NCBI RefSeq assembly: GCF_030013205.1
Contig: NZ_CP122648.1
Length of the DNA: 64,000 nucleotides
Origin: Escherichia coli
GTDB lineage: Bacteria; Pseudomonadota; Gammaproteobacteria; Enterobacterales; Enterobacteriaceae
Reading direction: 5' to 3' (one strand)
Part shown: positions 26,936 to 28,063 of the stretch, in pieces
How positions within the stretch are numbered: position 1 is the first letter of the stretch
How the letters are laid out: each line of letters begins with the position of its first letter
Notes under the pieces: generated by a model
The model's database searches: none
What the model was told of the DNA's origin: nothing
The model's input: the letters and a program-made list of their open reading frames with translations, nothing else
Translations under genes and position numbers: made by a program

Positions 26936-28063
26936 ATGAAAGTTAAAGTACTGTCCCTCCTGGTCCCAGCTCTGCTGGTAGCAGGCGCAGCAAACGCTGC
27001 TGAAGTTTACAACAAAGACGGCAACAAATTAGATCTGTACGGTAAAGTAGACGGCCTGCACTATTTCTCTGACGACAAGTCTGTAGATGGCGACCAGACC
27101 TACATGCGTCTTGGCTTCAAAGGTGAAACTCAGGTTACTGACCAGCTGACCGGTTACGGCCAGTGGGAATATCAGATCCAGGGCAACAGCGCTGAAAACG
27201 AAAACAACTCCTGGACTCGTGTGGCATTCGCAGGTCTGAAATTCCAGGATGTAGGTTCTTTCGACTACGGTCGTAACTACGGCGTTGTTTACGACGTAAC
27301 TTCCTGGACCGACGTACTGCCAGAATTCGGTGGCGACACTTACGGTTCTGACAACTTCATGCAGCAGCGTGGTAACGGCTTCGCGACCTACCGTAACACT
27401 GACTTCTTCGGTCTGGTTGACGGCCTGAACTTTGCTGTTCAGTACCAGGGTAAAAACGGTAGCGTAGATGGCGAAGGCATGACCAACAACGGTCGTGGTG
27501 CTCTGCGTCAGAACGGCGACGGCGTTGGCGGTTCTATCACTTATGATTACGAAGGCTTCGGTATCGGTGCTGCAGTTTCCAGCTCCAAACGTACTGATGA
27601 TCAAAATGGTAGCTACATCAGCAATGGTGTAGCTCGTAACTACATCGGTACTGGCGACCGTGCTGAAACCTACACTGGTGGTCTGAAATACGACGCTAAC
27701 AACATCTACCTGGCTGCTCAGTACACCCAGACCTACAACGCAACTCGCGTAGGTTCCCTGGGTTGGGCGAACAAAGCACAGAACTTCGAAGCTGTTGCTC
27801 AGTACCAGTTCGACTTCGGTCTGCGTCCGTCTGTAGCCTACCTGCAGTCTAAAGGTAAAAACCTGGGTGTCATCAATGGTCGTAACTACGACGACGAAGA
27901 TATCCTGAAATATGTTGATGTTGGTGCGACCTACTACTTCAACAAAAACATGTCCACCTACGTTGACTACAAAATCAACCTGCTGGACGACAACCGCTTC
28001 ACCCGTGACGCTGGCATCAACACTGATGACATCGTAGCTCTGGGTCTGGTTTACCAGTTCTAA
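26936..28063 (+). CDS. ompC: outer membrane porin OmpC
   Basis: 375-aa [48 protein letters not shown] ... C-terminal LGLVYQF (beta-barrel terminal Phe). Confidence 0.95.

Follow-up and report, generated by a model that had tools for sequence, protein, structure and literature searches.

A 375-residue OmpC allele of Escherichia coli that departs from K-12 OmpC mainly in surface loops L4, L5 and L7

The ompC locus

The analysed window is a 64,000-nt stretch of Escherichia coli DNA (contig NZ_CP122648.1), and the features in and around its porin gene are listed in Table 1. The first-pass annotation had reported a porin reading frame of 375 codons, and this count was confirmed: an intact frame runs on the plus strand from the ATG at 26936 to a TAA stop codon at 28061-28063 and corresponds to ompC. 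The product matched the NCBIfam family model NF007841 (“porin OmpC”) over its full length with 759.9 bits, above the cut-off of 484, whereas the OmpF model (475.1 bits, cut-off 583) and the PhoE model (450.7 bits, cut-off 599) both remained below their cut-offs. A match to the Pfam family PF00267 (Porin_1, 470 bits) was also obtained. The protein carries a cleavable Sec signal peptide with the same 21 residues as in K-12 and ends in the C-terminal aromatic beta-signal (-LVYQF), which leaves a mature OmpC of 354 aa. The gene order, rcsD-micF-ompC-apbE(ftp)-ada-alkB, is that of K-12, with micF and rcsD divergent from ompC. Furthermore, the annotation of NZ_CP122643.1 calls the gene at the equal coordinates ompC, with the product WP_001590387.1.

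The regulatory region between micF and ompC is nearly the same as in K-12, and its sole change is a CT at 26754-26755, where K-12 has GC. This change is located about 182 nt before the start codon of ompC, directly 5' of TTTACATTTTGAAACATCTA, which we take to be the distal OmpR-binding box. A scan for consensus promoters gave hits no more numerous than those in shuffled sequence, and it was not used to place the ompC promoter.

Table 1. Features at the ompC locus, in coordinates of the 64,000-nt window
Feature	Position	Strand	Remarks
micF small RNA gene	26509..26602	-	RF00033, 116.8 bits, gathering score 79; divergent from ompC
ompC promoter, OmpR-box region and 5' UTR	26603..26935	+	331/333 nt (99.4%) as in K-12
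ompC CDS	26936..28063	+	Product RefSeq WP_001590387.1, “porin OmpC”
Signal peptide, aa 1-21	26936..26998	+	Identical to K-12; PDB mature chains align from query residue 22
Loop L3, pore constriction, about aa 114-144, with PEFGG	27275..27367	+	Protein identical to K-12
Loop L4, aa 172-195	27449..27520	+	Beck type c7; 4 aa shorter than in K-12
Loop L5, aa 219-241	27590..27658	+	Beck type b5; 8 aa longer than in K-12
Imperfect in-frame direct repeat in L5	27609..27654	+	27609-27627 against 27636-27654, 15/19 identical, spacing 27 nt
Loop L7 tip, aa 309-318	27860..27889	+	Beck type e; 4 aa longer than in K-12
Terminator-like GC-rich hairpin followed by a T run	28082..28101	+	3' of ompC; conserved with K-12

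Three loop indels account for the length difference

The K-12 MG1655 gene (b2215) has 1104 nt and encodes 367 aa, so the K-12 length given in the annotation was right. In the pairwise alignment with K-12 OmpC that it had proposed, the two proteins differ in both length and sequence, and the identity against which it had set its claim was not found. Protein and DNA alignments resolved the net gain of eight residues into a loss of four in L4, a gain of eight in L5 and a gain of four in L7. The corresponding changes in the DNA (-12, +24 and +12 nt) are all internal and in frame, and the eight-residue excess over K-12 is thus explained by three surface loops of different length.

In L4, a 12-nt gap after nt 27475 removes the K-12 residues G181-F-T-S184. 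This loop segment carries three further substitutions relative to K-12, as well as a V-to-M and a D-to-G change. The additional 24 nt of L5 lie at 27608-27631, where the K-12 residues TAA are replaced by 11 residues; as a whole, the K-12 segment DAQNTAAYIGNGD gives way to a segment of 21 residues. In L7, the additional 12 nt (27866-27877) contribute GVIN, and the K-12 sequence NLGRGYDD is represented here by 12 residues. The annotation had expected the extra residues in an external loop and had pointed to a Gly/Asn/Asp-rich stretch as the probable site. The first part of this expectation holds for L5 and L7; the named stretch, however, consists of L4 and the start of beta9, where the protein is four residues shorter than in K-12.

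Over the aligned columns, the protein is 95% identical to K-12 OmpC. In the protein alignment, aa 51-175 are identical to K-12, including L3 and its PEFGG motif at aa 129-133. The substitutions, in window numbering, are N47D and D49S (both in L1), G212A, I214V, L300V, G317N, Q354R and N365D, of which Q354R and N365D fall in L8; beta10 and beta14 also carry substitutions. The allele departs from K-12 OmpC almost only at surface-exposed loops.

Predicted structure and pore

An AlphaFold2 model was built from an alignment of 79 sequences, which included representatives of 50%-identity clusters. The model reached a pLDDT of 91 and a pTM of 0.87, with lower values in L4 and L5 (pLDDT about 75-82). 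It predicts a 16-strand beta-barrel with L3 folded inward as the constriction loop, and in Foldseek superpositions it aligned with the OmpC crystal and cryo-EM structures 2j1n (TM 0.96), 9wcb (TM 0.98) and 2xe1 (TM 0.95) at an rmsd of 1.5-1.8 Å. All three indel sites are predicted to lie outside the barrel strands or at their tips. The structure-based alignment of Beck et al. 2016 (PMC5056734, S1 Fig) likewise assigns them to the extracellular loops L4, L5 and L7, so that the mapping onto the OmpC structure, suggested with the first reading of the sequence, gave the same answer by two routes. In the DSSP assignment of the model, a small beta-hairpin (aa 226-229 and 232-235) is predicted for the additional residues of L5.

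Changes at G137 or R195 lower beta-lactam permeability (PMC6970295). At both of these pore-lumen positions, given in K-12 numbering (R195 is R191 here), the allele keeps the K-12 residue, and the acidic or neutral residue at G137 and/or R195 that defines low permeability in Patino-Navarrete et al. 2020 is absent. Since the barrel, L3 and the known residues of the pore lumen are preserved, the channel would be expected to act like that of K-12 OmpC, with a permeability that we infer to be K-12-like.

Distribution of the allele and of its loops in E. coli

The exact 1128-nt allele was present at 100% identity in 22 of 5426 complete E. coli genomes; most of these belong to pig ETEC and O139:H1 strains and a few to human isolates. 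A further 17 records were at least 99% identical to it. The window itself is closely related to one porcine strain: its first 49,275 nt are byte-identical to positions 1759726-1809000 of NZ_CP122643.1 (ETEC4079, a porcine ETEC from pig faeces, Belgium), and a query with the segment 39001-64000 matched the same record along its full length (100%) with an identity of 100.0%.

The long L5 type is more widely distributed than the complete allele. With an 81-nt query across L5, it was detected in 566 of 5426 genomes, comprising 56 at an identity of at least 99%, 369 at 95-99% and 141 at 80-90%. One of the records with a long L5 is NZ_CP120910.1 (strain PD007; 4,641,666 bp), which has the size of K-12 MG1655 and the K-12 coordinates of ompC and yet carries this loop type; its L5 (about 2312014-2312094) is 97.5% identical to the L5 segment of the window. 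PD007 may derive from K-12 by engineering or recombination.

Variation in OmpC length is common. Judged from the subject spans in 59 genomes sampled at even intervals, OmpC ranged from 363 to 376 aa, with 367 aa as the length in 25 genomes; the others had 363 aa (4 genomes), 364 (6), 368 (3), 370 (1), 373 (6), 374 (4), 375 (6) or 376 (4). Among the protein-database matches inspected, OmpC homologues extended from 349 to 381 aa. The earlier statement that OmpC surface loops are hotspots of variation agrees with the loop catalogue of Beck et al. 2016 (PMC5056734), in which more than 220 distinct OmpC sequences vary mainly in L4 (33 types), L5 (30 types) and L7 (13 types), and these loop types occur in many combinations. 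Each of the three loops described here has an exact match among the types of their S2 Table, namely c7 for L4, b5 for L5 and e for L7. The allele is an ordinary natural form of OmpC whose elements had been catalogued before, and loop-length variation of this kind is well known.

Origin of the loop cassettes

Codon usage sets L5 and L7 apart from the rest of ompC, a highly expressed gene. It contains three AAT codons and a single CAA codon, each of which falls within the L5/L7 cassettes (Fisher p = 0.005), and outside them the gene uses AAC at 22 of 22 and CAG at 18 of 18 positions. This departure would fit a long L5 imported from another genus rather than one of Escherichia origin. Nevertheless, the OmpC representatives of Citrobacter in the aligned sample have short L5 loops, and among the best 120 database matches the long L5 was found only in proteins labelled E. 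coli/Shigella or without a label. The 27-nt self-similarity within L5 would also fit a local duplication, and taken together these observations make an import from outside Escherichia improbable.

The direct repeat in L5 is the top in-frame self-match of the gene, with 17 of 27 identical positions. Since the best match elsewhere in the gene reaches 16 of 27, this margin is narrow, and a tandem duplication can be offered only tentatively as the possible beginning of the L5 extension. On the reading we favour, the allele would represent one combination of modular loop cassettes that E. coli lineages exchange through homologous recombination at a known hotspot. The region beside ompC has been described as such a hotspot, and ompC alleles move between lineages (PMC6970295).

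The apbE-ada flank and the remaining explanations

The identity to K-12 varies along the locus: rcsD and micF are about 99% identical, ompC 95.2%, apbE 93.3% and ada 94.7%, and values of about 98-99% are reached again from nt 30100 onwards. Positions 28270-30100, which contain most of apbE/ftp and most of ada, form a sharply bounded block of about 93% identity to K-12 between flanks of about 98-99%. This apbE-ada haplotype was found at an identity of at least 99% in only 22 of 5421 E. coli genomes, the same 22 that carry the allele, while 255 genomes fell at 95-99% and 5143 at 90-95%. In a three-way comparison, 28800-30200 was essentially identical to the haplotype located beside a phylogroup-D-type ompC (WP_000865539.1) in WP3-W18-ESBL-08, and 28400-28800 differed from both that strain and K-12. 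The flank is a three-way mosaic, consistent with the published recombination hotspot (PMC6970295).

Possible donors of the block were searched for with a degenerate apbE pattern against the GTDB species representatives; E. fergusonii, E. marmotae and E. ruysiae lay outside the retrieved set. None of the Escherichia or Citrobacter loci retrieved in this way was closer to the window than K-12. The identities were 92.95% for K-12, 92.8% for Escherichia sp. E1V33, 90.5% for E. whittamii and 87.4% for E. albertii.

The shared flank raises the question of whether ompC itself is an allele for altered permeability or antibiotic resistance, with a narrower or differently charged pore, comparable to the phylogroup-D/ST38 type or to G137D and R195L. 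Besides the WP3-W18-ESBL-08 haplotype at 28800-30200, this view draws on the report that such alleles spread via recombination (PMC6970295). The gene in the window, however, differs from the D-type WP_000865539.1 by 18-33 mismatches per 200 nt, and its L3, the whole of aa 51-175 and the equivalents of G137 and R195 are as in K-12. A resistance allele is therefore very unlikely.

Two further explanations can be dismissed as hardly credible. The reading frame could be a paralogous porin (OmpF, PhoE, OmpN or a prophage NmpC/Lc-type protein), given that E. coli genomes hold two to four places similar to the query, but the family-model scores, the canonical rcsD-micF-ompC-apbE-ada context and the 95% identity to K-12 OmpC all identify it as OmpC. 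Apart from the length difference itself, nothing suggests an annotation, start-codon or sequencing/assembly artefact: the ATG, the Shine-Dalgarno context and the signal peptide are as in K-12, and an N-terminus identical to K-12 together with three internal in-frame indels rules out a start-codon or annotation effect, just as 1128 nt at 100% identity in 22 independent complete genomes rule out a sequencing artefact; all three loop sequences had, moreover, been catalogued independently in 2016.

We are accordingly highly confident that the gene is a functional natural ompC allele that combines a c7 L4, a b5 L5 and an e L7, with a probably K-12-like channel and a changed surface. By analogy with K-12, its product would be a trimeric 16-strand general-diffusion porin, presumably under EnvZ/OmpR regulation.

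Several other differences were observed along the window. The gene yfaS (alpha-2-macroglobulin gene, 5491-10005) is intact here and a pseudogene in K-12, and atoS (17934-19756, minus strand) is a frameshifted pseudogene according to the annotation of NZ_CP122643.1. In the mqo-eco intergenic region, the window has a single copy (34646-34752) of a repeat unit about 109 nt long, compared with five tandem copies at a spacing of about 113 nt in K-12. Beyond narP and yejO, the segment at about 49800-64000 contains mobile-element-like genes, including a RepA-family helicase and a lytic transglycosylase domain protein. Related strains have capsid genes in the matching segment, which varies from strain to strain. 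Coverage of at least 80% of window positions 39001-64000 was reached in only 7 of 5426 genomes.

Probable consequences for phages, contact-dependent toxins and the cell surface

The loops that differ from K-12 are those with known roles in recognition. Recognition by CdiA-EC536 is determined by L4 and L5 (Beck et al. 2016, PMC5056734). In the same study, the OmpC proteins of A54H and A42H were expressed and yet did not serve as CdiA-EC536 receptors, which conferred resistance; the c7/b5/e combination was not among the alleles assayed there. For phage PP01, the L7 sequence GVIN is the key determinant recognised by gp38, and this adhesin inserts into the L5-L7 cleft and cross-links to S225/P226 in L5 of O157 OmpC; single-residue changes in L5 failed to block the phage (PMC12892980). 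Washizaki et al. (PMC5221442) reported, citing unpublished data, that a Phe in L4 of K-12 OmpC is necessary for the adsorption of T4, and also that T4 is unable to use O157 OmpC.

Based on these precedents, the allele probably does not act as a receptor for T4 or for CdiA-EC536. It likely presents an altered extracellular surface to phage tail fibres, CdiA toxins and antibodies, with a corresponding change in receptor specificity. Because L7 is O157-like (GVIN), the K-12 GFTS of L4 is missing and L5 is long, OmpC-dependent phages chosen on K-12 or O157 may not adsorb. These points could be of use where phage therapy or vaccines directed at porcine ETEC and oedema-disease strains are being developed. 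Otherwise, the finding has little importance beyond bookkeeping, as OmpC loop polymorphism, the modular L4/L5/L7 cassettes and their roles in phage and CDI recognition are well documented.

A more speculative scenario, which we regard as rather doubtful, would combine several of these elements. In it, an in-frame 27-nt tandem duplication of the YIGxGD limb of L5 would have produced a hairpin “finger” that reshapes the L5-L7 cleft and allows escape from PP01-like T-even phages and from CdiA-EC536, and the change would have been kept by selection with the mosaic apbE-ada segment hitchhiking along. If this were true, a pig-ETEC lineage would possess the GVIN determinant but evade both the gp38-bearing T-even phages and CdiA-EC536.

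Comparison with named OmpC proteins

Compared with K-12 OmpC (b2215, P06996; PDB 2J1N), the allele shares the locus, the signal peptide, the barrel strands, L2, L3, L6, G137 and R195, while the K-12 protein differs in having GFTS in L4, a short L5 (TAA) and an L7 without GVIN. The best sequence match in the PDB was OmpC of O157:H7 EDL933/EC869 (PDB 9WCB, a mature chain of 346 aa), with 736 bits. This protein, of Beck types c2/a6/e, has the same short L4 architecture and the same L7 with GVIN. Its L5, in contrast, is short (SPL); the L5 of the window is 8 aa longer, with O157 S225 and P226 replaced, and the L4 loops differ at two residues (S178D and E188G).

Among the UPEC proteins described in PMC5056734, A54H OmpC has an L5 that is one residue off the L5 of the window and an L7 with VING, although it differs in a longer L2 and a different L1. 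A42H OmpC is identical in L4 (c7), L7 (e) and mature length (354 aa), but its L5 is of type b1 (GTYVVDNVTHN). Finally, OmpC of UPEC CFT073 and 536 (PDB 2XE1) also has a precursor of 375 aa and the same four additional residues in L7. Unlike the protein described here, it combines a long L4 (four residues more than K-12, ENDPDFTGHG) with a short L5. CFT073 and 536 therefore reach 375 aa by another route, and an equal length does not imply the same allele.
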